DNA of 63,957 bases, filler included, from Stramenopiles sp. TOSAG23-6 (lineage: Eukaryota): assembly GCA_900128565.1 (NCBI GenBank). It is 3 parts of 3 records of this genome, joined end to end, with 100 filler letters (N's around TTAATTAATTAA, not from the genome) between each part and the next. Parts side by side here need not be neighbours in the genome. Positions count along the whole stretch, not along the records: positions 44,375 to 63,957 come from LT636049.1; 2 more parts are not named here. One strand, given 5' to 3'. This document shows, one piece after another, positions 21,206 to 63,957 of this stretch. Numbering within the stretch: the stretch's first letter is position 1; each line of letters begins with the position of its first letter. The translations under genes were made by a program, and so were the position numbers. The notes beneath the pieces are model-generated. The model saw nothing but the letters and a program-made list of their open reading frames with translations, made no database searches and had not been told where the DNA came from.

Positions 21206-21354
21206 TTTTTGTTTACTGGTTATGTTTATTTAGATTGTATTGTATAATTGGATTAAACAAATTAAACATTTTTTTATTGGTTATAAATTGGAAACCAAAA
21301 ATAAAACAATACAAATGTAATAATTTAGTTTGCTATTGACTTTTACTTTTGATT

Positions 21355-22089
21355 TTAGTTGTCTTCTGTTGTCAATTCATCTGTAATTAATCCAGCTGGT
21401 GTTGCAACAATTAATGATTTACATCCATAGAAAGCANGCTNACNAATACTAGTCACACTATTTGGAATTGTTATAGAATTTAGTGATTCACATCCAGAGA
21501 AAGCACCATTACCAATACTAGTAACACTATTTGGGATTGTTATAGAATTTAGTGATTCACATAAACAGAAAGCATAATTACCAATACTAGTTACACTATT
21601 TGGAATTGTTATAGAATTTAATGATGTACATACTTGGAAAGCATAATCACTAATACTAGTTACACTATTTGGAATTGTTATAGAATTTAGTGATTTACAT
21701 CCACGGAAAGCACCATTACCAATACTAGTAACACTATTTGGAATTGTTATAGAATTTAATGATTTACATTGATAGAAAACATACTCACCAATACTAGTTA
21801 CACTATTTGGAATTGTTATAGACTTTAGTGATTTGCAGTCACGAAAAGCATTCTTACCAATACTACTCACACTATTTGGAATTGTTATAGAATCTAATGA
21901 TTTACATCTACAGAAAGCATAACTACCAATAATAGTCACACTATTCGGGATTATAATTGATTTTAGTGACATGCCTATGAAGGCTTCCTTTTCAAGATAA
22001 GTCACAACTTCTGACAAAAATGATTTGATATTACGCCATACATCATCACCTCCATCCCAATACATCTTTCTCCTGGCTTCAGCATCTCT
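21355..22089 (-). CDS. BspA-type leucine-rich-repeat protein (LRR_5), probably 5'-truncated by the gap
   Basis: About eight 23-aa repeats [18 protein letters not shown] (69-nt DNA period). Confidence 0.9.
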
Positions 22090-44374: not shown

Positions 44375-44429
44375 GGTACAAAATTTCGTACGAAAAAAAA
44401 TTCGAATTTGAAAAAAAAATAAAACATAC

Positions 44430-45327
44430 ATGCCGTATCAGGATGTGTAAGCCCTAGATTTTGTTCCGTGATTTTTAAAGCTTTAGTTAGAACAGGGACA
44501 GCTTTTTCATATTGAAGTTCACTTATATAGAGATTTCCTAATTTACGTAGAGTCAAAGAAATTCCATTGTGCTGCTTTCCTAGTATTTCTTCTTTCATAT
44601 GCAAAGTTTTTTTTAAATTTAAAATACTGATTTCGCTCTCATTTTTTGGTATCTCTGATGTCTCAATTTCTGTGACCAATGGAACTAAATCGACCGGATA
44701 TCCATGACGCATCGATGGTTTACTCGAGTCATCTTCCCTTTCATCATCACTTAATAAGATCATGTCCGCTTTAGTTTCTTTGAGTACCATATTTTTTAAA
44801 GCATCTGGATGTAGCGTACTATTTACAAACTTTTCTCTATTGAGTACAGCCTCAACGGCAGTTTCCGACATCATTGTATCTATTGATTTTTCCCATCGAT
44901 TTAATACTCCAATGATATCACTTTGATTCATTTGTTTTGCGACTTCTATTGGTTTTTGTCCTTTGGAATTAGTTAAAGTTGGGTCGGCCGAATGGCTCAA
45001 TAATAACCCCACCAGTACTTTTGTGCCCCAGCCTGCGGCAAAATGCAATGCTGAATTTCCACCCCAATCTACCCTATTTATCATATTGTCAGTAGTTGCT
45101 AAAGAAATTAATAAGTTTGACATTTCAGTGTGACCATATTTACATGCCCAATGAAGACTCGTTCGTCCGTACTCATCGTCACAAAGACAATCGTCATATC
45201 CAGGACGCCGAAGAAGGACTTTCATTCTGTCTAGTTTTCCATGCCGTGCAGCATACCACTGCTTCCAAATGTTTGCGACTGTATCTGGCCCACCCTCGAG
45301 TTTATGAGGGCCAACATGGGTCGTCAT
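44430..45327 (-). CDS. Ankyrin + TPR protein, first exon (duplicated at 63005-63902 +)
   Basis: GRTSLHWACKYGH and GNSALHFAAGWG ankyrins; LGKQHNGISLTLRKLG and LGLTHPDTA TPRs; ends at a family donor AT|GTATGT. Confidence 0.8.
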
Positions 45328-45437
45328 CTTCCAGCTTATTTTTCACAAATTTGTGCTGAAATTCATAAGACTGCTATACTAACTTGTTTTCTTTTGAAAC
45401 TGTAAAAACTGTCATATCGGATATATTTGGACGCATA

Positions 45438-45452
45438 TAGGGTTAGGGTTAG
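45438..45452. promoter_or_regulatory. Telo-box-like TAGGGTTAGGGTTAG in a divergent promoter
   Basis: Between the ankyrin/TPR and acyltransferase starts. Confidence 0.5.
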
Positions 45453-45595
45453 TCGTGTTTGATATGCTCTTCCCACAACTATACTTTTATTATTATCAGA
45501 CTAATCTTGAGATCATCAATCTCTATTGTTCACTGTAGTAACACAATTTATCACCAAAGTTGCACTTTGTTTACAAAGCAGTAGAAGTGCAAAAT

Positions 45596-47268
45596 ATGTT
45601 TTGTAGATATTTTCATAGTATTGTACAAACTCGTCAGTTGCATCATGTTTTGCAAAGATGCGTCTTGAGACCAAAGGCAAGGACACAAATGTCAACTAGT
45701 GTAGAAAAGTCTATCCAGAACAACCCATCTCTACCTAGACTTCCACTACCAAACCTGGAAGACACCATGCATCGTTATTTAGAGAGCGTTTATCCTTATT
45801 GTATCAGTGATGGTGAATTTGAGGCACATCAGAGAGATGTTGAAAGTTTCATTAATGGTATTGGATCAAAGTTGCAAGAAGAACTTGAACGGTGTGAAAA
45901 AAACTCTCAATGCTCTGGTAAATATCCTTATTCGTTTATTGAAAGACAATGGGATGATATGTACTTATCTGGGCGTAATCCATTACTCATTAATGTGAAT
46001 CCTGCTTTTATACTTCATCCTAATCCACAAAAAAATATCTCTACGTTGAAGAACCCTAACCCTAATGAAAACACGACACAAGTGAGCCAGGCGGCGAAGT
46101 TTATAAATTCATCACTTAAATGGCTTTTGAAAGTTCGCCTTGGACATTTACCAGCTGATGGTCCATTGCCTGGTCAGTGCATGTCACAGTTTGAGACATT
46201 TCATGTACGTTTTCATCGTGAATTTAAATTATATTTTTTAGTACGAAAGTTTGTACCTAACGATTTTTTTACGAAAAAAAAAAAATATTTTTTCACAATA
46301 TGTGGATCATCAAGAATTCCTGGTGCTACAAGAGACAAACAATTATTCAATAAAAACGCAAAGCATATTGTAATCTTGCATCGTGGTCATATTTTTAAGT
46401 TAAATGTTTTTATTGAAAGTTGTGAAAAAATGAAAAAAAATGAAATTTTATCTGTTGAAACTTTAATTAAAAATTTATCTTGTATAGTTGATTATTGTAA
46501 CCAAATAAATGATGGTCCAGGAATTGGAATTTTGACTAGTTTAGATAGAGAAACTTGGTACAAAACCAGAAAATCTTTGATTGAATTTGACAATTTGAAT
46601 GATTCTCATGTCACTGAGATCGATACAGCAATTCTTGTTGTTACATTAGATGTATCAAACTGTATAAATAAAAATAGTTCAAATCATAGTCAAAATGATT
46701 TAATACGCGCCACAAGAAATGGTCTTCATGGATTACCAGGTAACTCACTCTCAGATCGATGGTACGACAAACCAACAATTATTATAGACAAAAACTCGCG
46801 CATCAGTGTTAATTTCGAGCATTCTTTTTCTGATGGTTCAATGTGGAATCGTTGGTTATTCGATACTCTGCAAGATTTTCCTAACCCAAATGAAGAGAAA
46901 ACAAAAAATAATGAAACTAATATGAAATTAAATTCCAAATTAGAGCCTCAAACTCAAGAACTCAATTTTAATATCCCAGATTTTATTCAAACTACTATCA
47001 ATGAATCAGTAAAAAAGGTCACTGATACTACGAATAATGTATGTTTTATTTTTTTATTTTTTTTTTTTCTATGATTTTTTTTTCGTACGAAATTTTGTAC
47101 CTAACAAATTTAAGTTTTTTTTTTTGTGGACTTCACGTGATAGAAGTTAAATCGTTGGGTAAAAATGACTTTAAAAAATTAAATGTTTCTCCTGATGCTG
47201 TTCTACAACTTTCTTTTCAACTTGCATATTTTCGCATGCATAAAAAATGTAGTGGTGTGTATGAGGCT
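45596..47268 (+). CDS. Carnitine O-acyltransferase (CPT2/CrAT family), 3'-truncated by a chimeric join
   Basis: LPRLPLPNLEDTMHRYL, CMSQF, SRIPG, DRWYDK, FEHSFSDG, SPDAVLQLSFQLAY, YE motif. Confidence 0.9.
46205..46303 (+). other. Family intron, GT..GT (99 nt, in frame, stop-free)
   Basis: Removal gives CMSQFETFH|GSSRIPG, the family spacing; ends TTCACAATATGT. Confidence 0.8.
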
Positions 47269-47360
47269 ATATGTTTTATGTTTTTTCAAACTCGAATTTT
47301 TTTTTCGTACGAAATTTTGTACCTAACGATTTTTCTTTCAAATATTTTTCTAAAATACAT

Positions 47361-47456
47361 GATATCAGTATGAATTTACCAGCTGCTCCAACAACAGCTC
47401 CAGTTTTGGAGGAAGATGACGAATTGGCAGAATTAGAAGGAATGATGGCAGCATAG
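47361..47456 (+). CDS. Terminal exon of an unrelated Snf7/Vps32-like ESCRT-III gene
   Basis: MNLPAAPTTAPVLEEDDELAELEGMMAA* resembles the Snf7/CHMP4 C-terminus, not an acyltransferase. Confidence 0.6.
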   Translation, partial: DISMNLPAAPTTAPVLEEDDELAELEGMMAA

Positions 47457-47737
47457 TGTGAAGTATTTGATCGTTGTAGTAATTTTTATCCTTCACAATA
47501 AATTGAATTTAGAAGAAACATATTGTTTTTTTTCGTGTTTTTGTGTTTTTGTACTACTATGGATTCCTCGTGCTAGGATTTTTTGATTTTACTATCCATA
47601 GTCTTACGTGATTGATCATGGGGTGTACCCTTTGTTATAAAATCTTGGATGAAACTGATTTATACTCTATCAATCAATTTCTAATACCTATCCCAGTATA
47701 CCCTAGTTATACTATGTATAAAAAAAAAAATTCANAG

Positions 47738-47760
47738 TAGGGTTAGGGTTGTGACGTCAC
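47738..47760. promoter_or_regulatory. TAGGGTTAGGGTT directly followed by palindromic GTGACGTCAC (CRE-like), upstream of TOP2
   Basis: Seen about 200 nt before the ATG at 47959. Confidence 0.5.
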
Positions 47761-47958
47761 TCAAAAACAACAAACGCCGAGCCAAAGAGAACACGCACTG
47801 TGCACGTGTATTAATAACAATTTCTGTCTGTTGATTTTGAAATAATTGTCAGTAAACTTCGCCTACCTTGCATTATTCACTTTACATTTGGGATCGTTTA
47901 CTAACCTTGATCTTCAATTTATTTGGTTTTGAAAAGATTCTTTATATTCGACGAAAAA

Positions 47959-50900
47959 ATGTCGCGAGCACGTAAGAAGGTTGACTACAAAGTTGATATT
48001 TCTAATTCTGATGATGATAGCAACTTCTCGTGTCTCAGTGATAGTACAGAGGATTCAATTAAAATGGGCAAAAAGAATGTGTCTTCCGGGAAAAAGGGTA
48101 CAAGGAAAAGCGTAGAAGAAAAATATCAACGTTTGGATCAGCATGAGCATATCCTACAACGACCTGATAGTTATGTCGGGAGTACTGAAGAACATACGGC
48201 AAAGATGCTCGTCTACGACGATGACTCAAAGACTCTTCGTGAGCGGTCTATTACGTATGTCCCTGCATTGTATAAGATATTTGATGAAGTTCTTGTAAAT
48301 GCGTCTGATAATAAGCAAAGATGTGGTAAGAAACAAACATACATTAAAGTGTCATTTGATGTCGATAAAGGCGAAATCTCAGTGACTAATGATGGTTCAG
48401 GTATCCCTGTGAAGAAGCATAAGAAGTGGAAAACATATGTTGCTGAAGGTATATTTGGTGTCTTATTGACAGGTAGTAATTATGATGACAAGGAGAAGAA
48501 AACGACTGGTGGGAGGAATGGTTATGGTGCGAAGTTAGCCAATATTTTTTCTAATCGTTTTGTTATTGAAACGGTTGATGCAAATGCACGATTGAAATAT
48601 CGTCAAGTTTGGACGAACAATATGTATAAAAAAAATGAACCAAAAATAACGGATGCGAAACCAACAGGTGCAAAGAAGAAAATCTTGGAATACACTAAAG
48701 TAATTTTCCGACCTGATTTTTCAAAATTTGGTGGAATGAATGGCCTTGACCGTGACATTGTTTCGTTAATGAAGAGGCGTTGCTATGATGTTGCTGCTTG
48801 TTTTCGTGGTACTTTAAAGATGTATATTAATAACAAACGTATTGGTGTGGACAGATTGATTCGATATGTGAAGTTATGTCGAGTTGGCATTCAGTATGAT
48901 GCGAATAAAATATCTTTGGATGCTTCTACCAATGGTGAAAATATCAAACCGAGTGTATTGAATGGATCAGAAGGAAAAAGTGTATCATCTTCGAATGATG
49001 TATTTTCTAAGAGTAAAAATACTGTACTTGACAATTCGATGTCATCACCAATACGCAATGCATTACCTTCAAGTCAAAGTTCACCGTGTAGCACAATGAC
49101 GACTAATTCACCTTCATCTTCTTCGTTACTCACGGAGGATCTTGATTTGACAAAGGTATGTTATATAAGTGTAAATAATAGATGGGAGGTTGCAGTATGT
49201 CTTTCTTCTGAAGGTCATTTTAGACACCATAGTTTTGTGAATGCAATTTCTACGACTGATGGAGGAAGTCATGTTGATGTGATTACGCAATCTGTTGTCG
49301 ATGCAATTATTTCTGCTGTATCTAAAAAAGACAAGAAAATGGCTAAACCACGACCTTCAGTTGTGAAAAATCATTTAATGATTTTTGTTAATGCTCTCAT
49401 TGATAACCCGAGTTTTAGTTCACAAACGAAAGAAAAACTAACAACGAAAAAATCGCAATTCACATCTAAAATTCAATTGCCTGAAAAATTTCTGCGTAAG
49501 GTGGTTTCCCCAGCTACAGGAATTGTTGCTGCAGTTGCTGCATATGTACGTTTTCATCATACACTAATTTTATTTCTTACCTAATCCAAAAGATTTTGTA
49601 TCTAACGTTTTTTTTTTTTTTTTAATAATCATATTTTTTCACAATACTTGCGAGCTTTGATGATAATCACCGCCGACAAATTATAAATTCAAGAACAACA
49701 AAAAATGCATCTATGCGTGGTGTTAAAAAGTTGGATGATGCGAATAATGTATGTTTTCATGATCAATTTTAAATTCATTTATTTTTTTATAGTAAATGTT
49801 GTACCTAACAAAAAACAATTGAAAATATTTTCCCAAAATACATGCAGGTGGCCGTAAAAGTTCTGATTGTACTTTAATTTTAACTGAGGGAGATTCTGCT
49901 AAAGCATTAGCGATTGCTGGATTATCAGTCATTGGTAGAGATAATTTTGGTGTATTTCCATTGAAAGGAAAACCTTTAAATGTACGTGATGCTACGTACG
50001 CAAATATTAAAAAGAACGAAGAAATCCAAACAATTATTAAAGTGATTGGGTTAGATCGAAATAAAGATTACGAACAAGTTGGATTGAAATCTCTTCGGTA
50101 TGGTTCTGTTATGATTATGGCTGATCAAGACGATGATGGTTCTCACATCAAAGGTCTTTTAATTAATTTTTTTGATTGGTACAACCCAACTTTACTAAAG
50201 AAAAAAGGATTTTTAAAACAATTTATTACTCCCATCATTAAAGCTACACGAAAAAAAGAAGTATTTACTTTCTATACACTTGGTGATTACAATGATTGGG
50301 AAAATGAACGAAATGAACGTGATGGTGGTTTAAGTGCATGTACGTTTCCATCGTGAATTTCAAAATTATTTTTTTTTAATAGTAAATTTTGTACCTAACA
50401 AAACAAAAATCGAATTTGACATATTTTCCGAAAATATATCTTCAATGGGTTGGCATATCAAGTATTATAAAGGTTTAGGTACTTCGACATCTAAAGAAGC
50501 TAAGGAATACTTTAGTGATATGAAGAAACATTTGAAAACATTTGCGTCATGTTCTGATAGTAGTTCTATGAATACTCCAAGAAATTTAGATGCTAAAGGT
50601 TTACCTCAACGTGCTGATAGAGAATGGATCGATTTAGCATTTACAAAGTCAAAAGCAGATGATCGAAAAAAATGGCTTTTAGCTTATGATGCTGAATTGA
50701 ACGGTGCAATTAATTACAACAAAAAAAGTATAAAATATACCGATTTCATTAATAATGAACTCATCCAATATTCTAGAGCTACTGTTCGTAGAGCTATTCC
50801 GTGTATTATTGATGGATTCAAACCTTCTCAAAGAAAAGTTTTGTTTGCATGTTTTAAACGTAAACTGACTAAAGAAATTAAAGTTGCTCAATTAGCTGGT

Positions 50901-53390
50901 TATGTCTCAGAACATTCTGCTTATCATCATGGTGAAGTTTCCTTACAAGGAACTATTGTGAGTATGGCTCAAAACTTTGTTGGGTCGAATAATATTAATT
51001 TATTATACCCAGGTGGTCAATTTGGTACACGTTTGCTTGGTGGAAAAGATCACGCGAGTGCTCGTTATGTACATTTTAATTATTCATTACAATTTCAAAT
51101 GTATTGTTCTACTATATTATTTTCAGATGAATTTTGTACCTAACAAAAAATTCGAATTTGTCATATTTTTCACTATACCTATCTTTACAAGACTTGAAAA
51201 AATTACACGATTAATTTTTCCTGCCACAGATGATGCGATTCTTGAGTATTTAGAAGATGAAGGTCAAATGGTTGAACCAAAAGCATTTATACCTATTATT
51301 CCTATGGTACTGATTAATGGTGCAAGTGGCATTGCTACTGGTTGGAGTACTTCTATCCCGAATTTTAGTCCTCGTGAAGTCATTGAAAATGTCAGACGTT
51401 TCATCGCAAATAAGAAATTTTTACCAATGGTACCATGGTACCAAGGTTTTCAAGGTGACATTCAGGATGTAAGTGGTGATGGTACTAAATTTAATTTTTG
51501 TGGTACTGCAAATTTTGAAGATGACAAAGTCTGTATTACTGAATTACCAGTTGGAGCGTGGACGTCTACATACAAGGAAAAAGTTCTTGGAAATATGTAT
51601 GATGTTCCTATACCAAAGAGTAAGAAGAAAAAGAAGAAAGGGAGTAACAATGACGATGATGACAGTGTTAGTTCGAAAAAGGGCAAAGTTAAAAAAGTTT
51701 CATCTAAAAAGAGTAAAGTAACGATAAAGAAAGTTCGTGAAAATCATACTGAAAATTCAGTATATTTCAACATTGAACTTGATTCAAGTAAAAATCACGA
51801 CCAAATTTTAAATACGCGTTCTAAACTGGAGACTGAATTTAAACTTACGAATGGTGTGATGCTGACCAATATGCATTTACTTGATTATGAAGGTATGAAA
51901 ATTGAACGATTCTGTACGTCTTCATCATTCATTTCAAATTAATTTTTTTTTCGTACGAAATTTTGTACCTAAACAAAAAAGATTTTTATTTTTATTTCTT
52001 CGAATCCAATTTTTGTAACATTACAAAAAAAACAAAAACTAATAAATTTCAAGTTTGACATATATTCTACTGCATATCTGGAACAGATCGAATCTTACAG
52101 AAATTCTGTGAAACAAGACTTCGATTTTATACATTACGCAAAGAACATCAATTGACTTGCTTACGTCATGAGTGGAAGGTATTGAACTCAAGACGAAGAT
52201 TTGTTGCTGCCGTTTCGTCTCGTGAATTGGAATTACGAAACAGACCGAAATCGGCGATTGTAGTTGATCTTGCAAAAAGAAATCATTATGTACGTTTTCA
52301 ACCTTCATTTGAATTTCAAATTGTTTTTGTTTTTGTATGAAAATTCCGTACCTGACGGTTTATTATTATATATATATATATATTCATAATACAGGTACCC
52401 ACTATTAAAACTCTTTTAATCATACGAAAAGGTATGTCTGGTTCAAAAGCTCAAAGTAAAATTGCTACTATGAACGATTCAGTTGTTGGTGCGAATGAAA
52501 GTGATGACAGTGATGTTTCTGATGATGAAAATAATGGCGAAAATAATGAAAATTTATGTCGTTTTGATTATCTATTATCGATGCCTATGTGGAGTTTAAC
52601 ACGAGAAAAAGTGAAAAGCTTATCTAAAAAATTAAAAAAGAAGAAAGATGAACTTGATGCTTTGAATGTTTGTACAGAAAGAGAGTTATGGAGTAAAGAT
52701 CTCGACGCGTTGGAGGCTGGATTGAATGAAGCTGATAAGATACGCGAAAAAGAACAAGCAAAAGAATATAAAAAACTTGGACGGAAATTCAAACGCCGAA
52801 TGGTCAATATTCGTTCACCAATGAAAGTAAAAGCGAAAGTTCCTGTCCATCCTGCACCTCTAACTCTCAGAGATGCTACGAACGTTATTCCTGATATTCA
52901 TTCAAGTCATTCTGCTGTAATTGTTCCAGTTGGAGAGACTATAAAAAAAACATTTCCAGTGGACAGAAAACCTGTAATTTCTTCAAACAAATTGAAAATT
53001 GAAAAAGATTCTAAAATGATAATTGTAGCAACATCATCTGATGATGACTCGGATGATGTTCCTTTGCGCAAAGTATTGGACAAGTCAAAAAAAAAGAAAA
53101 AAGTAATTGATAAAAAGGTAAATATTACTAAAAAGAAACGAAATGTTTTTGTTTCTTCAGATTCAGATTCTGATGATATTGAAGCTGATATGAAAGCGTA
53201 TCGAGAAAACGTGAAAGTAAAAAAAACATTAAATATTTCTGGAAAGAAACGTGCTGTCATTCTTTCGTCTGATTCAGATTCTGATGACATTGAAGCTGAT
53301 ATGAAAGCGTATCGAGAAAAAATGAACGCAAAACGAAAAAGAAAAAACACGTCAAGCGACAAGAAGAAAACAAAACGGTTTCGTCTCTGA
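47959..53390 (+). CDS. TOP2: DNA topoisomerase II (type IIA), 7 exons
   Basis: IFDEVLVNASDN, GGRNGYGAKL, KLDDANN|AGG, LTEGDSA, MADQDDDGSHIKGLL, YYKGLGTS, AYHHGE, SARY|IFT, LINGASGIATGWS. Confidence 0.97.
49546..49649 (+). other. Family intron, GT..TT
   Basis: TAT|GTACGTTTTCAT ... GTATCTAAC ... TTCACAATACTT|GCG AGC TTT. Confidence 0.85.
49749..49843 (+). other. Family intron, GT..AT
   Basis: Restores conserved KLDDANN|AGGR..CTLILTEGDSA; the CAG 4 nt downstream frameshifts to a stop. Confidence 0.92.
50340..50439 (+). other. Family intron, GT..AT
   Basis: AT|GTACGT ... GTACCTAAC ... GAAAATATAT|CT TCA ATG GGT TGG; no AG between the branch point and the WHIK codons. Confidence 0.85.
51069..51180 (+). 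other. Family intron, GT..CT, immediately after the catalytic Tyr codon
   Basis: CGT TAT|GTACAT ... GTACCTAAC ... CACTATACCT|ATC TTT ACA gives ARY|IFT. Confidence 0.92.
51914..52077 (+). other. Family intron, GT..AT (longer variant)
   Basis: CT|GTACGT ... TTTCGTACGAAATTTTGTACCTAAAC ... ACTGCATAT|CT GGA gives RFSGTDRILQKFCETRL. Confidence 0.7.
52290..52394 (+). other. Family intron, GT..AG
   Basis: TAT|GTACGTTTTC ... GTACCTGAC ... ATAATACAG|GTA CCC; in frame with ORF 52434. Confidence 0.88.
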
Positions 53391-53726: not shown

Positions 53727-55874
53727 TTAATGTAATGTTTGATTCTTTGCCATGAAGCGTTGGAAATCCCGAAGCTTACAGTTCGATAATTTTGATGCAT
53801 CTACAGCATATTTTTGACACGTCTGGGGTAAACGGGAAAACTCTACTGCGAGACTTTGCTTTGCTTTCTCATCTGCCTCGGCAACACCAGCAACAATTAA
53901 TACCATAGCTTTTGTAATATTGGGATGGATTTGAGAGTTTTGAGGTAAAGAATTTGGGCAATTATTTTCACTCATTCCAAAAGAATTTGTAGAATCTAAC
54001 ATAATTAGTTTATGCTTTTGTGACACAAGATCTGCAAGTTGAGAATGAACAACTCTAGCTTCTATGACATCACCCATGAGTGGCATTTTATTAACCCATA
54101 ATTCCATCAATTTTGATATCTTCACATCTCCTAAAATTTGGCCATGTGAAAAACAGATTCGTCCTAGTGCACCAATCGCATTATCAACTGCATCAATTGA
54201 TTCTTCTTTTAATGTAATATCCGTCAATTTATCAGCTTCTGAAATGAGGTTGGTGATTCTTTCAATTGCTTGAATACAATATGGTTGAAAATATTGTGCA
54301 GCTTTTGCTGCACATTGACCAATTCCATATAATGAACATTGTTGAATTCCGCGATGTTGACTTTGGATTGCATCAATAACAAGAGGAATAAATTTATTTG
54401 CGAAAGTTGCATGAGCAGTTGGACCACAATGTTCAATGATATCATCAAATATACATATACCATTGATACGTAAACTATCAGACATGTCTGTTCCAAGCAA
54501 TTTTTGAAACATAGACTGAACTTGTGCTGCCTCAAATACTGGTAAAAATGCACCTTTATGGATTTTAATCATATAACCAATTCCATCCACAATTTCCGTC
54601 ATTAATTCATCTTCCTCCTCTAACTCTTCTTCTAAAGCATCCTTTGCTTCCTCGTCAAAATATGGATCATTTTTAGCTTCATTTTCCACTTGAATACGCC
54701 GCGTCACACTCGCAGCTGCACATTGCACAAATATTGATGAAATCTCTTGACATCTTCTAATAGATGGTACAAGAATTGCTGGTGCAAGAAATGGAGCCTC
54801 GAAGTTTTCTTGTTTTGCAGTCGGTGCACCTGATCGGTAACAAACTTCCATCAAAGTCTTCAGTCCTTCAGCAGCACATGAAATATCTTCAATATCACCT
54901 TTTTCCATTTCAGTCTTTACACTATTCACTAATGCAGTAATACATGCTTCAAGTAAAGGTTGTATAATATTCGAAGACTGCCCAGCAGATACAGCACCAG
55001 CAATAGCAGATCGCACAAGCTGTGGTAACGCCAAAACAGCAGCAGAACGAACACCAGCAAAATATTGAAAAGAAACGCATGATTGCATTAGAATTTTTGA
55101 TGCGTCTTCAACAAATGGATAAAAATCTTCACGAAGAATTTCGGCATATTCTCGAATACAATTCACTGCACTATGTTTTTCTTCAATTGCGCACGTATTT
55201 AAACTAATTCTTTTATTACCAAATCCTCGTATATTTAATGTAGCATGAGAAAATCCTGTATTCGTAGCTTCCGAATTATCTTGAGTCACATCATCATCGA
55301 CGTCAGTGACAGTGTATGACACTTCAACAGCAGCCGCACGAAATAATGAAGGCATTACATGTGGTAGATAACATTTAAACGCAGAACCAATAGTACGACA
55401 AATATTTACACAACAATTTGTCAAAGCTAAAATCTGTGGATCACTTGCACCTACTTCACCATTATTCATACGAGCAAGTGAAGGTTGAAGCATATTCATT
55501 ATAGCATTCGCATCTGGTTGAAAAATTTCAGCATCAACAGATGCAACAATCAAACCGAGACATTCCAGTGCTCTTGCACGAAGTGAAGCTTGTTTTGTTC
55601 CAGTACATGTTCCATTTGGATCAAGAATTTGTTTCAATCCAGGAATAAATGAGTTATAATATTGATTGAAATCTGTTTCTACAATAGTAGCTACACAAGC
55701 GACAGCTTTTAATGCTTCTTCTTGAACAGCTTGTGCAGAGTTACCTAATGAAACAGCATTACTTAATAATAAACATAACGAACCTAATAAATCATTTAGA
55801 TGCGGTTCTATCGCCTCTTCAGGACATTCATTTGGTGTAGCAAAGCATGTTATACATGATGCTGCTTGACCACG
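53727..55874 (-). CDS. IPO5: Importin-5 / Kap121 family karyopherin, C-terminal half (5' end cut by the inversion junction)
   Basis: VRGQAASCI, VQEEALKAVACVA, LRARALECLGLI, IRGFGNKRISLNT..IEEK, ICIFDDIIEHCG, AVDNAIGALGRI. Confidence 0.9.
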   Translation of the reverse strand, partial: RGQAASCITCFATPNECPEEAIEPHLNDLLGSLCLLLSNAVSLGNSAQAVQEEALKAVACVATIVETDFNQYYNSFIPGLKQILDPNGTCTGTKQASLRARALECLGLIVASVDAEIFQPDANAIMNMLQPSLARMNNGEVGASDPQILALTNCCVNICRTIGSAFKCYLPHVMPSLFRAAAVEVSYTVTDVDDDVTQDNSEATNTGFSHATLNIRGFGNKRISLNTCAIEEKHSAVNCIREYAEILREDFYPFVEDASKILMQSCVSFQYFAGVRSAAVLALPQLVRSAIAGAVSAGQSSNIIQPLLEACITALVNSVKTEMEKGDIEDISCAAEGLKTLMEVCYRSGAPTAKQENFEAPFLAPAILVPSIRRCQEISSIFVQCAAASVTRRIQVENEAKNDPYFDEEAKDALEEELEEEDELMTEIVDGIGYMIKIHKGAFLPVFEAAQVQSMFQKLLGTDMSDSLRINGICIFDDIIEHCGPTAHATFANKFIPLVIDAIQSQHRGIQQCSLYGIGQCAAKAAQYFQPYCIQAIERITNLISEADKLTDITLKEESIDAVDNAIGALGRICFSHGQILGDVKISKLMELWVNKMPLMGDVIEARVVHSQLADLVSQKHKLIMLDSTNSFGMSENNCPNSLPQNSQIHPNITKAMVLIVAGVAEADEKAKQSLAVEFSRLPQTCQKYAVDASKLSNCKLRDFQRFMAKNQTLH

Positions 55875-58800
55875 TACCTTTTCGTATGATTAAAAGAGTT
55901 TTAATAGTGGGTACCTGTATTATGAATATATATATATATATAATAATAAACCGTCAGGTACGGAATTTTCATACAAAAACAAAAACAATTTGAAATTCAA
56001 ATGAAGGTTGAAAACGTACATAATGATTTCTTTTTGCAAGATCAACTACAATCGCCGATTTCGGTCTGTTTCGTAATTCCAATTCACGAGACGAAACGGC
56101 AGCAACAAATCTTCGTCTTGAGTTCAATACCTTCCACTCATGACGTAAGCAAGTCAATTGATGTTCTTTGCGTAATGTATAAAATCGAAGTCTTGTTTCA
56201 CAGAATTTCTGTAAGATTCGATCTGTTCCAGATATGCAGTAGAATATATGTCAAACTTGAAATTTATTAGTTTTTGTTTTTTTTGTAATGTTACAAAAAT
56301 TGGATTCGAAGAAATAAAAATAAAAATCTTTTTTGTTTAGGTACAAAATTTCGTACGAAAAAAAAATTAATTTGAAATGAATGATGAAGACGTACAGAAT
56401 CGTTCAATTTTCATACCTTCATAATCAAGTAAATGCATATTGGTCAGCATCACACCATTCGTAAGTTTAAATTCAGTCTCCAGTTTAGAACGCGTATTTA
56501 AAATTTGGTCGTGATTTTTACTTGAATCAAGTTCAATGTTGAAATATACTGAATTTTCAGTATGATTTTCACGAACTTTCTTTATCGTTACTTTACTCTT
56601 TTTAGATGAAACTTTTTTAACTTTGCCCTTTTTCGAACTAACACTGTCATCATCGTCATTGTTACTCCCTTTCTTCTTTTTCTTCTTACTCTTTGGTATA
56701 GGAACATCATACATATTTCCAAGAACTTTTTCCTTGTATGTAGACGTCCACGCTCCAACTGGTAATTCAGTAATACAGACTTTGTCATCTTCAAAATTTG
56801 CAGTACCACAAAAATTAAATTTAGTACCATCACCACTTACATCCTGAATGTCACCTTGAAAACCTTGGTACCATGGTACCATTGGTAAAAATTTCTTATT
56901 TGCGATGAAACGTCTGACATTTTCAATGACTTCACGAGGACTAAAATTCGGGATAGAAGTACTCCAACCAGTAGCAATGCCACTTGCACCATTAATCAGT
57001 ACCATAGGAATAATAGGTATAAATGCTTTTGGTTCAACCATTTGACCTTCATCTTCTAAATACTCAAGAATCGCATCATCTGTGGCAGGAAAAATTAATC
57101 GTGTAATTTTTTCAAGTCTTGTAAAGATAGGTATAGTGAAAAATATGACAAATTCGAATTTTTTGTTAGGTACAAAATTCATCTGAAAATAATATAGTAG
57201 AACAATACATTTGAAATTGTAATGAATAATTAAAATGTACATAACGAGCACTCGCGTGATCTTTTCCACCAAGCAAACGTGTACCAAATTGACCACCTGG
57301 GTATAATAAATTAATATTATTCGACCCAACAAAGTTTTGAGCCATACTCACAATAGTTCCTTGTAAGGAAACTTCACCATGATGATAAGCAGAATGTTCT
57401 GAGACATAACCAGCTAATTGAGCAACTTTAATTTCTTTAGTCAGTTTACGTTTAAAACATGCAAACAAAACTTTTCTTTGAGAAGGTTTGAATCCATCAA
57501 TAATACACGGAATAGCTCTACGAACAGTAGCTCTAGAATATTGGATGAGTTCATTATTAATGAAATCGGTATATTTTATACTTTTTTTGTTGTAATTAAT
57601 TGCACCGTTCAATTCAGCATCATAAGCTAAAAGCCATTTTTTTCGATCATCTGCTTTTGACTTTGTAAATGCTAAATCGATCCATTCTCTATCAGCACGT
57701 TGAGGTAAACCTTTAGCATCTAAATTTCTTGGAGTATTCATAGAACTACTATCAGAACATGACGCAAATGTTTTCAAATGTTTCTTCATATCACTAAAGT
57801 ATTCCTTAGCTTCTTTAGATGTCGAAGTACCTAAACCTTTATAATACTTGATATGCCAACCCATTGAAGATATATTTTCGGAAAATATGTCAAATTCGAT
57901 TTTTGTTTTGTTAGGTACAAAATTTACTATTAAAAAAAAATAATTTTGAAATTCACGATGGAAACGTACATGCACTTAAACCACCATCACGTTCATTTCG
58001 TTCATTTTCCCAATCATTGTAATCACCAAGTGTATAGAAAGTAAATACTTCTTTTTTTCGTGTAGCTTTAATGATGGGAGTAATAAATTGTTTTAAAAAT
58101 CCTTTTTTCTTTAGTAAAGTTGGGTTGTACCAATCAAAAAAATTAATTAAAAGACCTTTGATGTGAGAACCATCATCGTCTTGATCAGCCATAATCATAA
58201 CAGAACCATACCGAAGAGATTTCAATCCAACTTGTTCGTAATCTTTATTTCGATCTAACCCAATCACTTTAATAATTGTTTGGATTTCTTCGTTCTTTTT
58301 AATATTTGCGTACGTAGCATCACGTACATTTAAAGGTTTTCCTTTCAATGGAAATACACCAAAATTATCTCTACCAATGACTGATAATCCAGCAATCGCT
58401 AATGCTTTAGCAGAATCTCCCTCAGTTAAAATTAAAGTACAATCAGAACTTTTACGGCCACCTGCATGTATTTTGGGAAAATATTTTCAATTGTTTTTTG
58501 TTAGGTACAACATTTACTATAAAAAAATAAATGAATTTAAAATTGATCATGAAAACATACATTATTCGCATCATCCAACTTTTTAACACCACGCATAGAT
58601 GCATTTTTTGTTGTTCTTGAATTTATAATTTGTCGGCGGTGATTATCATCAAAGCTCGCAAGTATTGTGAAAAAATATGATTATTAAAAAAAAAAAAAAA
58701 ACGTTAGATACAAAATCTTTTGGATTAGGTAAGAAATAAAATTAGTGTATGATGAAAACGTACATATGCAGCAACTGCAGCAACAATTCCTGTAGCTGGG

Positions 58801-60350
58801 GAAACCACCTTACGCAGAAATTTTTCAGGCAATTGAATTTTAGATGTGAATTGCGATTTTTTCGTTGTTAGTTTTTCTTTCGTTTGTGAACTAAAACTCG
58901 GGTTATCAATGAGAGCATTAACAAAAATCATTAAATGATTTTTCACAACTGAAGGTCGTGGTTTAGCCATTTTCTTGTCTTTTTTAGATACAGCAGAAAT
59001 AATTGCATCGACAACAGATTGCGTAATCACATCAACATGACTTCCTCCATCAGTCGTAGAAATTGCATTCACAAAACTATGGTGTCTAAAATGACCTTCA
59101 GAAGAAAGACATACTGCAACCTCCCATCTATTATTTACACTTATATAACATACCTTTGTCAAATCAAGATCCTCCGTGAGTAACGAAGAAGATGAAGGTG
59201 AATTAGTCGTCATTGTGCTACACGGTGAACTTTGACTTGAAGGTAATGCATTGCGTATTGGTGATGACATCGAATTGTCAAGTACAGTATTTTTACTCTT
59301 AGAAAATACATCATTCGAAGATGATACACTTTTTCCTTCTGATCCATTCAATACACTCGGTTTGATATTTTCACCATTGGTAGAAGCATCCAAAGATATT
59401 TTATTCGCATCATACTGAATGCCAACTCGACATAACTTCACATATCGAATCAATCTGTCCACACCAATACGTTTGTTATTAATATACATCTTTAAAGTAC
59501 CACGAAAACAAGCAGCAACATCATAGCAACGCCTCTTCATTAACGAAACAATGTCACGGTCAAGGCCATTCATTCCACCAAATTTTGAAAAATCAGGTCG
59601 GAAAATTACTTTAGTGTATTCCAAGATTTTCTTCTTTGCACCTGTTGGTTTCGCATCCGTTATTTTTGGTTCATTTTTTTTATACATATTGTTCGTCCAA
59701 ACTTGACGATATTTCAATCGTGCATTTGCATCAACCGTTTCAATAACAAAACGATTAGAAAAAATATTGGCTAACTTCGCACCATAACCATTCCTCCCAC
59801 CAGTCGTTTTCTTCTCCTTGTCATCATAATTACTACCTGTCAATAAGACACCAAATATACCTTCAGCAACATATGTTTTCCACTTCTTATGCTTCTTCAC
59901 AGGGATACCTGAACCATCATTAGTCACTGAGATTTCGCCTTTATCGACATCAAATGACACTTTAATGTATGTTTGTTTCTTACCACATCTTTGCTTATTA
60001 TCAGACGCATTTACAAGAACTTCATCAAATATCTTATACAATGCAGGGACATACGTAATAGACCGCTCACGAAGAGTCTTTGAGTCATCGTCGTAGACGA
60101 GCATCTTTGCCGTATGTTCTTCAGTACTCCCGACATAACTATCAGGTCGTTGTAGGATATGCTCATGCTGATCCAAACGTTGATATTTTTCTTCTACGCT
60201 TTTCCTTGTACCCTTTTTCCCGGAAGACACATTCTTTTTGCCCATTTTAATTGAATCCTCTGTACTATCACTGAGACACGAGAAGTTGCTATCATCATCA
60301 GAATTAGAAATATCAACTTTGTAGTCAACCTTCTTACGTGCTCGCGACAT
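55875..60350 (-). CDS. TOP2: Second, 3'-truncated copy of DNA topoisomerase II (likely artefact)
   Basis: Same ORF translations as 47959-52434. Confidence 0.7.
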
Positions 60351-61040
60351 TTTTTCGTCGAATATAAAGAATCTTTTCAAAACCAAATAAATTGAAGATC
60401 AAGGTTAGTAAACGATCCCAAATGTAAAGTGAATAATGCAAGGTAGGCGAAGTTTACTGACAATTATTTCAAAATCAACAGACAGAAATTGTTATTAATA
60501 CACGTGCACAGTGCGTGTTCTCTTTGGCTCGGCGTTTGTTGTTTTTGAGTGACGTCACAACCCTAACCCTACTNTGAATTTTTTTTTTTATACATAGTAT
60601 AACTAGGGTATACTGGGATAGGTATTAGAAATTGATTGATAGAGTATAAATCAGTTTCATCCAAGATTTTATAACAAAGGGTACACCCCATGATCAATCA
60701 CGTAAGACTATGGATAGTAAAATCAAAAAATCCTAGCACGAGGAATCCATAGTAGTACAAAAACACAAAAACACGAAAAAAAACAATATGTTTCTTCTAA
60801 ATTCAATTTATTGTGAAGGATAAAAATTACTACAACGATCAAATACTTCACACTATGCTGCCATCATTCCTTCTAATTCTGCCAATTCGTCATCTTCCTC
60901 CAAAACTGGAGCTGTTGTTGGAGCAGCTGGTAAATTCATACTGATATCATGTATTTTAGAAAAATATTTGAAAGAAAAATCGTTAGGTACAAAATTTCGT
61001 ACGAAAAAAAAATTCGAGTTTGAAAAAACATAAAACATAT

Positions 61041-62736
61041 AGCCTCATACACACCACTACATTTTTTATGCATGCGAAAATATGCAAGTTGAAAAGAAAG
61101 TTGTAGAACAGCATCAGGAGAAACATTTAATTTTTTAAAGTCATTTTTACCCAACGATTTAACTTCTATCACGTGAAGTCCAAGATGTATTTTGGAAAAA
61201 TATTTCAAAAAAAAAAACTTAAATTTGTTAGGTACAAAATTTCGTACGAAAAAAAAATCATAGAAAAAAAAAAAATAAAAAAATAAAACATACATTATTC
61301 GTAGTATCAGTGACCTTTTTTACTGATTCATTGATAGTAGTTTGAATAAAATCTGGGATATTAAAATTGAGTTCTTGAGTTTGAGGCTCTAATTTGGAAT
61401 TTAATTTCATATTAGTTTCATTATTTTTTGTTTTCTCTTCATTTGGGTTAGGAAAATCTTGCAGAGTATCGAATAACCAACGATTCCACATTGAACCATC
61501 AGAAAAAGAATGCTCGAAATTAACACTGATGCGCGAGTTTTTGTCTATAATAATTGTTGGTTTGTCGTACCATCGATCTGAGAGTGAGTTACCTGGTAAT
61601 CCATGAAGACCATTTCTTGTGGCGCGTATTAAATCATTTTGACTATGATTTGAACTATTTTTATTTATACAGTTTGATACATCTAATGTAACAACAAGAA
61701 TTGCTGTATCGATCTCAGTGACATGAGAATCATTCAAATTGTCAAATTCAATCAAAGATTTTCTGGTTTTGTACCAAGTTTCTCTATCTAAACTAGTCAA
61801 AATTCCAATTCCTGGACCATCATTTATTTGGTTACAATAATCAACTATACAAGATAAATTTTTAATTAAAGTTTCAACAGATAAAATTTCATTTTTTTTC
61901 ATTTTTTCACAACTTTCAATAAAAACATTTAACTTAAAAATATGACCACGATGCAAGATTACAATATGCTTTGCGTTTTTATTGAATAATTGTTTGTCTC
62001 TTGTAGCACCAGGAATTCTTGATGATCCACATATTGTGAAAAAATATTTTTTTTTTTTCGTAAAAAAATCGTTAGGTACAAACTTTCGTACTAAAAAATA
62101 TAATTTAAATTCACGATGAAAACGTACATGAAATGTCTCAAACTGTGACATGCACTGACCAGGCAATGGACCATCAGCTGGTAAATGTCCAAGGCGAACT
62201 TTCAAAAGCCATTTAAGTGATGAATTTATAAACTTCGCCGCCTGGCTCACTTGTGTCGTGTTTTCATTAGGGTTAGGGTTCTTCAACGTAGAGATATTTT
62301 TTTGTGGATTAGGATGAAGTATAAAAGCAGGATTCACATTAATGAGTAATGGATTACGCCCAGATAAGTACATATCATCCCATTGTCTTTCAATAAACGA
62401 ATAAGGATATTTACCAGAGCATTGAGAGTTTTTTTCACACCGTTCAAGTTCTTCTTGCAACTTTGATCCAATACCATTAATGAAACTTTCAACATCTCTC
62501 TGATGTGCCTCAAATTCACCATCACTGATACAATAAGGATAAACGCTCTCTAAATAACGATGCATGGTGTCTTCCAGGTTTGGTAGTGGAAGTCTAGGTA
62601 GAGATGGGTTGTTCTGGATAGACTTTTCTACACTAGTTGACATTTGTGTCCTTGCCTTTGGTCTCAAGACGCATCTTTGCAAAACATGATGCAACTGACG
62701 AGTTTGTACAATACTATGAAAATATCTACAAAACAT
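61041..62736 (-). CDS. Second copy of the carnitine O-acyltransferase (likely artefact)
   Basis: Identical ORF translation; intron 2 is intact in this copy. Confidence 0.7.
61185..61293 (-). other. Family intron, GT..AT (intact version of the intron starting at 47039)
   Basis: AAT|GTATGTTTT ... TTTCGTACGAAATTTTGTACCTAAC ... CCAAAATACAT|CTT GGA. Confidence 0.85.
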
Positions 62737-63004
62737 ATTTTGCACTTCTACTGCTTTGTAAACAAAGTGCAACTTTGGTGATAAATTGTGTTACTACAGT
62801 GAACAATAGAGATTGATGATCTCAAGATTAGTCTGATAATAATAAAAGTATAGTTGTGGGAAGAGCATATCAAACACGACTAACCCTAACCCTATATGCG
62901 TCCAAATATATCCGATATGACAGTTTTTACAGTTTCAAAAGAAAACAAGTTAGTATAGCAGTCTTATGAATTTCAGCACAAATTTGTGAAAAATAAGCTG
63001 GAAG

Positions 63005-63902
63005 ATGACGACCCATGTTGGCCCTCATAAACTCGAGGGTGGGCCAGATACAGTCGCAAACATTTGGAAGCAGTGGTATGCTGCACGGCATGGAAAACTA
63101 GACAGAATGAAAGTCCTTCTTCGGCGTCCTGGATATGACGATTGTCTTTGTGACGATGAGTACGGACGAACGAGTCTTCATTGGGCATGTAAATATGGTC
63201 ACACTGAAATGTCAAACTTATTAATTTCTTTAGCAACTACTGACAATATGATAAATAGGGTAGATTGGGGTGGAAATTCAGCATTGCATTTTGCCGCAGG
63301 CTGGGGCACAAAAGTACTGGTGGGGTTATTATTGAGCCATTCGGCCGACCCAACTTTAACTAATTCCAAAGGACAAAAACCAATAGAAGTCGCAAAACAA
63401 ATGAATCAAAGTGATATCATTGGAGTATTAAATCGATGGGAAAAATCAATAGATACAATGATGTCGGAAACTGCCGTTGAGGCTGTACTCAATAGAGAAA
63501 AGTTTGTAAATAGTACGCTACATCCAGATGCTTTAAAAAATATGGTACTCAAAGAAACTAAAGCGGACATGATCTTATTAAGTGATGATGAAAGGGAAGA
63601 TGACTCGAGTAAACCATCGATGCGTCATGGATATCCGGTCGATTTAGTTCCATTGGTCACAGAAATTGAGACATCAGAGATACCAAAAAATGAGAGCGAA
63701 ATCAGTATTTTAAATTTAAAAAAAACTTTGCATATGAAAGAAGAAATACTAGGAAAGCAGCACAATGGAATTTCTTTGACTCTACGTAAATTAGGAAATC
63801 TCTATATAAGTGAACTTCAATATGAAAAAGCTGTCCCTGTTCTAACTAAAGCTTTAAAAATCACGGAACAAAATCTAGGGCTTACACATCCTGATACGGC
63901 AT
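63005..63902 (+). CDS. Second copy of the ankyrin + TPR first exon
   Basis: Mirror of 44430-45327. Confidence 0.7.
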
Positions 63903-63957
63903 GTATGTTTTATTTTTTTTTCAAATTCGAATTTTTTTTCGTACGAAATTTTGTACC

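Follow-up and report, generated by a model that had tools for sequence, protein, structure and literature searches.

The window, a stretch of 63,957 nucleotides from Stramenopiles sp. TOSAG23-6, contained a DNA topoisomerase II gene that encoded 1,583 amino acids once six introns of one family were removed. The intron of main concern (49749–49843, 95 nt) was composed of a 93-nt element, GTAT...ATAC, and a 3′ AT copy, in the arrangement AT/GTATGTTTT...AAAATAC-AT/GCA, with slashes at the splice junctions. It interrupted the gene in phase 0 (DDANN/AGG), and the Ala and Gly residues past the junction were conserved in 60 of 60 homologues. The features were as follows.

47959–53390, plus strand: host gene, DNA topoisomerase II
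49546–49649, plus strand: family intron AT/GT...TT, with an exact join in the seawater contig X3 record 18
49746–49756, plus strand: 5′ splice site AAT/GTATGTTT
49747–49748, plus strand: exon-side AT of the duplication, kept in the mRNA and pairing with U1 positions 9–10
49749–49843, plus strand: the intron described above
49790–49809, plus strand: conserved family core, near-palindromic (TACGAAATTTTGTAC type), with the branch motif CTAAC at its end
49838–49841, plus strand: element 3′ end ATAC, a 4-bp inverted repeat of GTAT
49842–49843, plus strand: 3′ copy of the duplication (AT), serving as acceptor
50340–50439, plus strand: family intron AT/GT...AT
51069–51180, plus strand: family intron AT/GT...CT, in which the codon for the invariant Tyr of ARY-IFT is completed by the upstream AT
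51914–52077, plus strand: family intron CT/GT...AT, whose upstream C is required for a conserved aromatic residue
52290–52394, plus strand: family intron AT/GT...AG, where registers −1 and −2 yield a stop
58466–58560, minus strand: mirror copy of the 49749–49843 intron, inside a 100% inverted duplication

The branch motif was located at 49805–49809, about 35 nt before the intron end. The intron appeared a second time at 58466–58560 because positions 44375–52437 were a 100% inverted duplicate of 55872–63957, which is probably an amplification or assembly artefact. The two appearances were entered once in the window counts, which were based on a hand list of 24 non-redundant introns.

The topoisomerase II reading frame was restored in the GT register only. 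In addition, X3 record 18 joined 49544 to 49649 with no mismatch, which corresponded to the GT...TT intron neighbouring 49749–49843; this was a single contig showing a junction, and its run was labelled 'probably DNA'. The junction of 49749–49843 itself was crossed by none of the listed seawater pieces. Different true boundaries, either AT-AC by a 2-base slide or GT-AG with the +5 GT or a neighbouring AG, are highly improbable. A +4 slide at 49749–49843 gave an in-frame GT...AG, and some in-frame GT-AG option existed in 63 of 152 copies. However, the slide replaced the invariant Ala-Gly with Val-Cys, 89 of the 152 copies had no such option, and AG options were no commoner than control dinucleotides. 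The AT-AC register produced a stop at 52290 and conflicted with X3 record 18. It was also excluded at 51069, since the upstream AT was needed for the invariant Tyr codon (Tyr in 60 of 60 homologues). The AT-AC, TG-CN and GT-AG registers were all rejected, and with them U12-type AT-AC boundaries; a U12 snRNA search was empty, and its own control made that search uninformative. Across the family, ending the intron two bases past ATAC gave an open frame in 163 of the 181 copies, compared with 39–44 for +0, +1, +3 and +4.

A strict family pattern gave 3,429 exact matches, duplicates included, and 0 in the control. The main sample consisted of 181 non-redundant copies from ~0.9 Mb. Similar introns were present at many unrelated positions, as in introners, and almost all introns seen belonged to this one element family. 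Nearly all copies seen lay inside genes in sense orientation. Copies of the core motif were also present beyond introns, for instance in the interval between two converging transposon genes. The AT target was preceded by C in 44% and followed by G in 52% of 122 copies. Sixty-three inter-copy spacings appeared to cluster near 90–190 and 310–395 nt, a pattern that bears on a possible preference for nucleosome linkers. Three tandems were seen overall, with unlike partners. No empty paralogous site was found in the 0.9 Mb examined, and the 5 family matches in viral contigs were all due to chance. In the RNA runs, only 6–13% of the words were present. Compared with X1 and X2, the element-to-exon depth was reduced ~15-fold in X3 and X4, a ratio that is not a measure of copy number.

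The only U1 snRNA found started with AAACGUACAUG, which is exactly complementary to CAT/GTACGTTT, and the upstream AT therefore doubles as a donor signal. This U1 carried three changes (U2A, U5G and C9A), one of which paired with exon position −1, the duplicated base. GT started 158 of 176 copies. Over all 176, the donors paired with U1, as in U2-type introns, at a mean of 10.1 of 11 positions, whereas the consensus U1 would pair at 7.3. Donor position +4 varied between C and T as G5 of U1 predicts, with 58 Watson-Crick and 116 G-U pairs among the 176. The duplex of the 5′ splice site at 49746–49756 was −9.5 kcal/mol with the U1 5′ end of the same genome and −1.9 kcal/mol with the Rfam consensus U1. 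One non-family GT-AG intron formed a weak duplex with the altered U1 (−3.1 versus −11.4 kcal/mol). A pattern search for a canonical U1 gave 2 matches, equal to its control, and an Rfam search scored 41 of 253 candidates. The metagenome scan for the altered U1 gave one match, by chance, in a GC-rich contig without a U1.

The branch motif had a CTAAC core complementary to the canonical GUAGUA of U2. U2, loop 1 of U5, ACAGAGA of U6 and the 1231–1730 region of Prp8 were ordinary, and this Prp8 region had no telling change compared with human. One U2AF65 was found (G000:C433), and no U2AF35 was present among 15 zf-CCCH matches from 23 candidates. These signals and snRNAs point to the major spliceosome as the agent of excision, and the altered U1 would be the one used in splicing.

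The original prediction described the element ends as short terminal inverted repeats (TIRs), with ATGTAT and ATACAT as reverse complements. The complementarity is true, although the palindromic AT accounts for two of the six bases. The inverted repeat was 4 bp long and perfect in 73 of 176 copies, and compensatory changes were absent. A clear TIR of at least 6 nt, as in MITE-type introners, was absent, and position 5 paired in 1 of 176 copies. The suggestion that pairing of the RNA ends juxtaposes the splice sites was not borne out: 49749–49843 folded with free ends (z = 0.02). Excision driven by such pairing, non-spliceosomal or structure-guided as in euglenid nonconventional introns, is very unlikely. 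End pairing of at least 4 bp was predicted in 71 of 176 folds, compared with 41–51 when the 3′ end was shuffled. Nevertheless, a +4 C had a partner G in only 2 of 58 copies, the +4 variation followed U1, and the donor and branch signals were spliceosomal.

Among the window's 24 introns, a recount agreed with upstream AT in 16, terminal AT in 16, AT at both places in 10 and TT at both in 1. T at −1 was counted in 23 rather than the 22 claimed, with 47269 read as CT/ATATGT. These 24 introns showed no covariation of AT with AT (10 seen versus 10.7 expected; Fisher p = 0.67). The covariation that had been proposed as a check was present in larger genome samples and was strongest in the least diverged copies. 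The upstream pair equalled the terminal pair in 139 of 181 copies (110.5 expected; 0 of 5,000 randomisations), and by rising divergence in 54 of 60, 46 of 61 and 39 of 60. Another sample gave 81 of 100 (66.6 expected; 0 of 20,000), and one subfamily had 31 identical pairs in 36, compared with 12.6 expected. In an independent set of 60 young copies with GT, TT or CT upstream, 28 of 30 non-AT ends repeated the upstream pair (13.8 expected; 0 of 20,000). The pairs matched better within copies than between copies, which is a locus-specific target site duplication (TSD) in the sense of PMC9860276. The 28 of 30 young non-AT ends and the equality in 139 of 181 copies indicate that a 2-bp duplication forms the acceptor, and that the target pair flanks the element on both sides after insertion. 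A 3-bp duplication was rejected, since base −3 and the final base of ATAY showed no covariation.

A view without duplication, in which the terminal AT is borne by the element and the upstream AT was selected only to pair with the altered U1, has very little probability. U1 does pair with YAT at −3 to −1, C at −3 was enriched only in copies with AT at both places (47 of 112), and the window's own introns lacked covariation. However, this view cannot yield matches of GT with GT, TT with TT, CT with CT, AA with AA and AG with AG, and it is contradicted by their locus-specific nature. The predicted 2-bp duplication, with the 3′ copy ending the intron and the coding sequence unchanged, was thus upheld by the covariation, the topoisomerase II frame and the X3 record 18 join. 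The predicted insertion at AT held for the main target, but GT, TT, CT, AA and AG were also originally duplicated. Reading frames, conserved residues and the one contig show that the mRNA regains its original sequence, with one splice site carried and one co-opted as in introners.

The terminal dinucleotide was AT in 149 and AG in 6 of the 181 copies, so that the AG acceptor of U2-type introns was not the rule. The claim that the acceptor has drifted from AT needs correction: 27 copies had a non-AT pair upstream and AT at the end, compared with 10 in reverse, so that the acceptor was kept at AT, or shifted toward it, more than it drifted. Because the matching GT, TT, CT, AA and AG pairs are original duplications, many non-AT acceptors are not products of drift. 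At 51914, the upstream C is required for the aromatic residue, and the terminal AT is therefore not a copy of the present target. Of the 60 young copies with a non-AT pair upstream, half had an AT end, and among the 27 phased cases 19 were non-synonymous. Plain duplication followed by drift accounts poorly for these copies. Scanning to the first AG was rejected, as the first AG past the branch lay before the end in 54, at the end in 5 and after the end in 122 of the 181 copies. The branch-to-acceptor distance was 35–43 nt (interquartile).

The preferred reading, to which somewhat better than even confidence is given, is that a non-autonomous element inserted at a 2-bp site and is spliced with the 3′ duplicate as acceptor, and that the spliceosome adapted. 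The element would be a DNA element of ~93–100 bp, GTAYGTTTT...GTACCTAAC...CAMAATAC, with thousands of insertions in genes, at a site that is mostly AT, also GT, TT or CT, and rarely AA or AG. The donor and the branch point would be carried by the element itself, and the major spliceosome would cut at the element GT and past the 3′ duplicate. With U1 (AAACGUACAUG) pairing with YAT/GTAYGTTT, the AG/GT...YAG/G pattern would have become YAT/GT...YAT/G. The acceptor would probably be located by branch distance and a YAT/G preference. After insertion, the age classes suggest that non-AT acceptors tend toward AT and that the exonic copies drift. The enzyme would most likely be a cut-and-paste transposase with a 2-nt staggered cut. 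No autonomous partner with family ends was found in searches of the incomplete genome, where Transposase_21, Resolvase, Phage_integrase, TnpB and RVT_1 gave no match. G000:C2432 (Harbinger-type; DDE_Tnp_4/Plant_tran) was rejected as the partner by its GGCCG TIRs and TAA duplication, and a second DDE_Tnp_4 gene and two DDE_3 genes by the lack of family end motifs.

The same anatomy and splicing would result if the element left with its own two bases, as an overhang or a circle joint (ATAC-NN-GTAY), and exchanged strands at a matching pair. The pair would then be inherited along lineages, and after an imperfect match the upstream bases would come from the target and those ending the intron from the donor. 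This is a possible explanation, though a tentative one. Among the first 100 of the 372 places of subfamily GTAYGTTTTATTTTTTTTCAAATTC, the upstream pair was AT in 90, GT in 6 and TT in 4. Subfamily GTAYGTTTTATATGAATTTC, counted in the first 100 of 195 places with duplicates dropped by eye, had AT 15, GT 26 and TT 6 in its GTATG branch and 14, 3 and 9 in its GTACG branch (p = 9e-4). The donors of the GTATG branch were identical from +1 to +11, yet the target pair differed. The sharp contrast between same-donor subfamilies (AT 90 of 100 versus GT 26 of 47), although post hoc in origin, hints that the pair is partly inherited. Intron ends in GTAYGTTTTATATGAATTTC were AT 39, GT 29 and TT 17 of 85, and an upstream AT with a GT or TT end occurred in 3 of 13 copies, compared with 4 of 132 family-wide (p = 0.016). 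A non-AT pair upstream of an AT end was common even in the youngest copies (10 of 25); such copies were, however, older than those with matching non-AT pairs (p = 0.005), as later conversion or selection predicts. Nearest neighbours shared the pair in 0 of 29 cases in an unselected set, and not significantly in a selected set (p = 0.17–0.30; p = 0.053 for matching non-AT pairs only); an apparent signal of 17 of 59 was gone once ascertainment was controlled. Head-to-tail joints, as traces of circles, gave 46 matches, and of 11 read, 10 were ordinary exon ends and 1 was a tandem. In the incomplete genome, an IS607-like serine recombinase gene (Resolvase) had 0 matches, as did Phage_integrase and TnpB.

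An RNA route, in which introns circularised by the spliceosome are reverse-transcribed or reverse-spliced and enter DNA via microhomology at NN-G, is improbable. Spliceosomes are able to make intron circles, according to the available part of PMC10996645. The sense orientation within genes and a G directly after the intron in 54% are consistent with this route, which would also render the terminal pair heritable. However, the incomplete genome gave no reverse transcriptase match, core-motif copies lay outside introns, and no duplication is expected from reverse splicing by itself, whereas 28 of 30 non-AT ends repeated the target.

The near-universal 3′ AG ranks with the best-conserved rules of splicing. 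In this genome, almost every intron seen comes from one family and ends without AG, and the three changes of the accompanying U1 fit both the element and its duplicated base. The preferred reading would make the system a splicing machine retuned around an invading element in an uncultured marine protist. Two long-standing questions thereby become testable in one genome: how the 3′ site is chosen by the spliceosome when AG is lacking, and whether invading introns are followed or permitted by snRNAs. Variation of the pair from copy to copy means that the insertion chemistry is also recorded, and the subfamily-specific target pair is open to a tree-based test. Gene finders that assume GT-AG garble the proteins of this organism; P0003 was a garbled topoisomerase II model.

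No published report of this system was found in the open-access literature. A bolder reading, put forward with considerable reserve, is that the major spliceosome was retuned around one element from AG/GT...AG/G to AT/GT...AT/G (a rewritten U1, an AG-independent acceptor and possibly no U2AF35), and that this element spreads by donor-inherited 2-bp core exchange. Intron gain by such exchange is absent from the introner literature examined. Introner-type systems share multiple copies at unrelated gene positions, a locus-specific duplication that supplies the acceptor and an unchanged mRNA. They co-opt an AG acceptor with TSDs of 3–9 bp, whereas here the duplication is 2 bp, the acceptor is AT in most copies, and U1 matches the element.

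ISL2EU elements of the PHIS superfamily share the 2-bp AT duplication, but the portion of PMC4482050 available describes an A/AT/T target and TIRs of 6–259 bp starting with GG, in animals. Neither that context nor a GG-start TIR was found here, where the target was C-AT-G with GTAT/ATAC ends, and GT, TT and CT were used too. IS607 serine transposons have two identical bases at both junctions and no real TIRs, as here. Their serine transposases exchange at a fixed GG core and are encoded by the element (PMC6188088, in part), whereas no such recombinase was found in the present incomplete genome.

The non-canonical, transposon-derived introns of Fritillaria borealis and F. pellucida are similar in that AT is the commonest 3′ end (34% and 44%), a YAY triplet precedes the donor and also ends the intron, and canonical introns are a minority (PMC13326754, in part). 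In the same partial account, F. borealis has mostly non-GT donors (AG/AC, AG/AT), a duplicated U2AF and a U1 not strongly complementary to the non-canonical donors. By contrast, the present system has GT donors, one dominant family, one U2AF65 found and a U1 rewritten even at an exon-pairing position. The U1 5′ end is also fully complementary to an atypical donor in Entamoeba and Mastigamoeba (10.1101/2022.06.08.495308, in part). Two changes and one change, respectively, are described there, with neither a mobile intron family nor a non-AG acceptor in that part of the source, whereas the present U1 has three changes, one of them at the duplicated base.

The window was eukaryotic, with about 34% GC and scaffold gaps, and the assembly comprised 21.1 Mb in 6,236 contigs, duplicates among them. 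The focal intron interrupted the topoisomerase II gene.

49749-49843, + strand: focal intron, 95 nt, AT|GTATGTTTT...CTAAC...AAAATAC-AT|GCA
44375-52437 and 55872-63957, opposite strands: perfect inverted duplication of 8 kb

The inverted duplication is probably an amplification or an assembly chimera; 23 nt of the intron end at 47126 were missing from the + arm and present in the − arm, and this end appeared as loose ends in seawater contigs. A database protein (P0003) from an assembly labelled marine stramenopile (MAST) had exon residues identical to this topoisomerase II in a garbled gene model. Among 24 non-redundant window introns, the original prediction had counted correctly: the upstream exon pair was AT in 16, the terminal intron pair AT in 16, both were AT in 10 and both TT in 1. 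T at −1 prevailed as described, in 23 introns on re-reading and not in 22. The interpretation, an element inserted at AT with a 2-bp duplication and spliced out with the 3′ copy, was supported in essence, with some of its details corrected.

When the six introns were taken out in the GT register, a single topoisomerase II frame of 1,583 residues resulted, with intron ends, in order, of TT, AT, AT, CT, AT, and AG. In an alignment with 60 of 120 listed homologues, the Ala and Gly directly after the focal junction were conserved in 60/60, and a GT..AG slide was rejected, as it would replace them by Val-Cys. An AT-AC slide at 51069 would delete a Tyr conserved in 60/60, which we take to be the catalytic tyrosine, and slides by one or two bases at 52290 gave a stop codon. 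Copies of the family were also called, blind to their flanks, in about 0.85 Mb of the genome plus the window, part of the stretches being picked for copy density. The frame was open in 163/181 copies with the intron end at ATAC plus two bases, and in only 39-44 of 181 at alternative lengths out of frame with that end. A GT-AG reading gave an in-frame option in 63/152 copies, no excess over control dinucleotides (45-131), and was rejected. Excising the stretch that starts at GT and includes the 3′ duplicate restored the frame.

Record 18 of seawater run X3 covered 49414-49544 and 49649-49741 with zero mismatches, lacking the GT..TT intron and retaining the upstream AT. The run is labelled 'probably DNA'; if so, the record represents an empty allele carrying a single AT, likewise a prediction of the duplication model. 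The same intron was still present in record 4 of run X1. The focal junction was crossed by none among the seawater pieces listed (2,275 further pieces exist).

The strict family pattern matched 3,429 times genome-wide and 0 times in the control. The window alone showed no duplication, since independence already predicted 10.7 AT/AT introns against the 10 seen (p=0.67). The expected covariation of upstream and terminal pairs did appear in the genome samples, where the two were identical in 81/100 strict copies vs 66.6 expected (0/20,000) and in 139/181 of the wider set vs 110.5 expected (0/5,000), the latter including GT/GT 7, TT/TT 6, AA/AA 2, and AG/AG 2. Identity was strongest in the least-diverged copies and dropped with rising divergence, from 54/60 through 46/61 to 39/60. 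A second set of 60 was selected among copies with an upstream GT, TT, or CT (279 genome-wide, the first 100 considered); evident duplicates were passed over, as were most copies of the earlier samples. The pair was repeated in 28, the end was AT in 30, and two were GT/TT; the non-AT ends matched their own upstream pair in 28/30 vs 13.8 expected. Base −3 did not covary, and the locus-specific duplication was therefore 2 bp long. A locus-specific TSD match is a criterion for introners in the accessible text of PMC9860276, and such a match was found here.

The acceptor, thought to have drifted, was instead the steadier copy (non-AT/AT 27 vs AT/non-AT 10). Base −2 lay at the third codon position in 16/25 phased non-AT/AT cases of the unselected set vs 48/162 overall, which fits exon drift. 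Among the selected 60, it did so in only 9/27 phased cases, and 19/27 were non-synonymous. The AT end at 51914 was not the target, because the upstream C is required for a conserved aromatic residue. Non-AT/AT copies were older than copies with the same non-AT pair on both sides (p=0.005); to explain them, either AT must be favoured by selection or gene conversion, or the end must come from the donor.

The target pair also differed between subfamilies, a post hoc pattern checked genome-wide afterwards. Copies starting GTAYGTTTTATTTTTTTTCAAATTC had upstream AT in 90, GT in 6, and TT in 4 (first 100 of 372, duplicates kept). For GTAYGTTTTATATGAATTTC copies (first 100 of 195), raw AT/GT/TT counts for the GTATG and GTACG branches were 25/34/6 and 19/3/13; with 27 evident duplicates dropped by eye, they became 15/26/6 and 14/3/9 (p=9e-4). 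Across 85 matches, after exclusion of a secondary one, their ends were AT in 39, GT in 29, and TT in 17, and copies linked by coordinates repeated their own pair in 31/36 vs 12.6 expected, with AT/GT twice. U1 pairing cannot explain the contrast, because GTATG donors were identical from +1 to +11. This leaves two readings: the subfamilies used different enzymes or inserted at different times, or the pair is handed down by strand exchange across a 2-base core, as described for IS607 in the available part of PMC6188088. Against such inheritance, nearest-neighbour tests of the pair were not significant, and resolvase and integrase searches found no recombinase in the incomplete genome; it is the less likely reading. 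Fresh duplication by a transposase is moderately favoured, and the anatomy common to both insertion readings is held with high confidence.

A long transposase-encoding element with the family ends had been anticipated, and none was found among the families searched.

G000:C2432 and three duplicates: Harbinger-type two-ORF element, 27-bp GGCCG TIRs, TAA flanks

The family core was present between the converging genes of this intact-looking transposon (L096:1050-1110), with family ends absent. Other DDE genes showed no family end motifs, searches for CACTA, TnpB, and reverse transcriptase gave no match, and an autonomous partner was lacking in the families searched. An ISL2EU identity was rejected. 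Another DDE_Tnp_4 gene, of a single ORF, was followed downstream by an inverted repeat of 54 bp that contains GTATAC motifs (L095:1913-2063, G000:C4153).

The proposed TIRs were weak: the GTAT/ATAC complement existed, perfect in 73/176 copies, with position 5 paired in 1, short of the 6-nt TIR of MITE-type introners. Pairing of the ends in RNA, the suggested alternative, would form a poor clamp; copies with C at +4 had the partner G in 2/58, and the predicted fold of the focal intron left its ends free (z=0.02), while family-wide the ends were paired in 71/176 vs 41-51 in controls.

The spliceosomal RNA genes were located as follows.

G000:C1146:9-645 (L101; duplicate contig C6122): U5, U2, U1, and U4 in one cluster, head to tail within 640 bp
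C3740: U6

The U2 GUAGUA, U5 loop 1, and U6 ACAGAGA were canonical. The U1 match was full length with an Sm-site motif (54.1 bits, under the 69.5 gathering score; E=7.5e-12), and its loop II was GAUCAC instead of AUUGCAC. Its 5′ end was AAACGUACAUGG vs consensus AUACUUACCUGG; the first 11 bases were the reverse complement of CAT|GTACGTTT, and U1 was complementary to YAT|GTAYGTTT. Over 176 copies it paired at 10.1/11 positions vs 7.3 for consensus U1, the three changed bases pairing at −1 with T (156), at +4 with C (58) or, by wobble, T (116), and at +7 with T (172). Since U1 pairs with T at −1, the upstream AT doubles as a signal for splicing. Enrichment of C at −3 was confined to copies in which AT comes next. 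Neither a pattern, whose 2 hits equalled its control, nor an Rfam search that scored 41 of 253 candidates turned up a canonical U1. A second U1 may be unassembled, because a non-family GT-AG intron (GTAAGT...TAG, L068:4531-4626), among very few such introns seen and presumably in an RNase HII gene, shows poor pairing to this U1. Of 175 intron-like gaps found by a search that used no splice signals, 129 were family by rule; by eye, most of the remaining 46 were diverged copies of the family or gaps between genes, and only one or two were plain GT-AG introns. Non-GT starts occurred in 18/176 frame-keeping copies (AT 9, GC 3). The Prp8 1231-1730 region was ordinary; Prp8 (L102, G000:C84) lay in an open frame of 2,021 residues with zero introns, against six in topoisomerase II. 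U2AF65 was present, and U2AF35 was absent among 15 zf-CCCH matches, weak evidence given that the genome is incomplete.

The element would move by DNA transposition with a 2-nt stagger and would be excised by the spliceosome, 3′ duplicate included; distance from the branch point (interquartile 35-43 nt) and a YAT|G preference probably determine the acceptor. G followed the intron at +1 in 54%. Judged by spliceosome structures, A at −2 of these introns can still contact the branch A, and the contact between G and G at the two intron ends would be lost; this loss would fit the tolerated non-G starts.

Head-to-tail pairs of dissimilar copies sharing a single AT occurred at L070:2638, L001:1493, and L198, the newer copy inserted in the older copy's terminal pair, leaving a zero-length exon, AT|GT. 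At 47269-47361, an ATATGT-starting copy connected a carnitine acyltransferase-like gene to a tail that is presumably Snf7-like, by either mis-join or recombination between two element copies. The core and 3′ end at 22950-23036, without a typical 5′ end, may represent a truncated copy with AG|GTCAAC as its splice site. About ten protein-coding 69-bp repeats at 21331-22020 belong, we assume, to a BspA-like leucine-rich repeat protein.

Neither this system nor its combination of features was found described in the open-access literature. In the accessible text on introners (PMC9860276; PMC11282704), the acceptor is co-opted from the TSD, as here, and the family agrees with their tests except for the 6-nt TIR and the partner. 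A co-evolved U1 is already known from Entamoeba, according to the available part of 10.1101/2022.06.08.495308. In Fritillaria, 3′ AT ends with YAY context are also known, and its own U1 is described in the available sections of PMC13326754 as lacking strong complementarity to the non-canonical donors there, whereas the U1 found here matches the donor.
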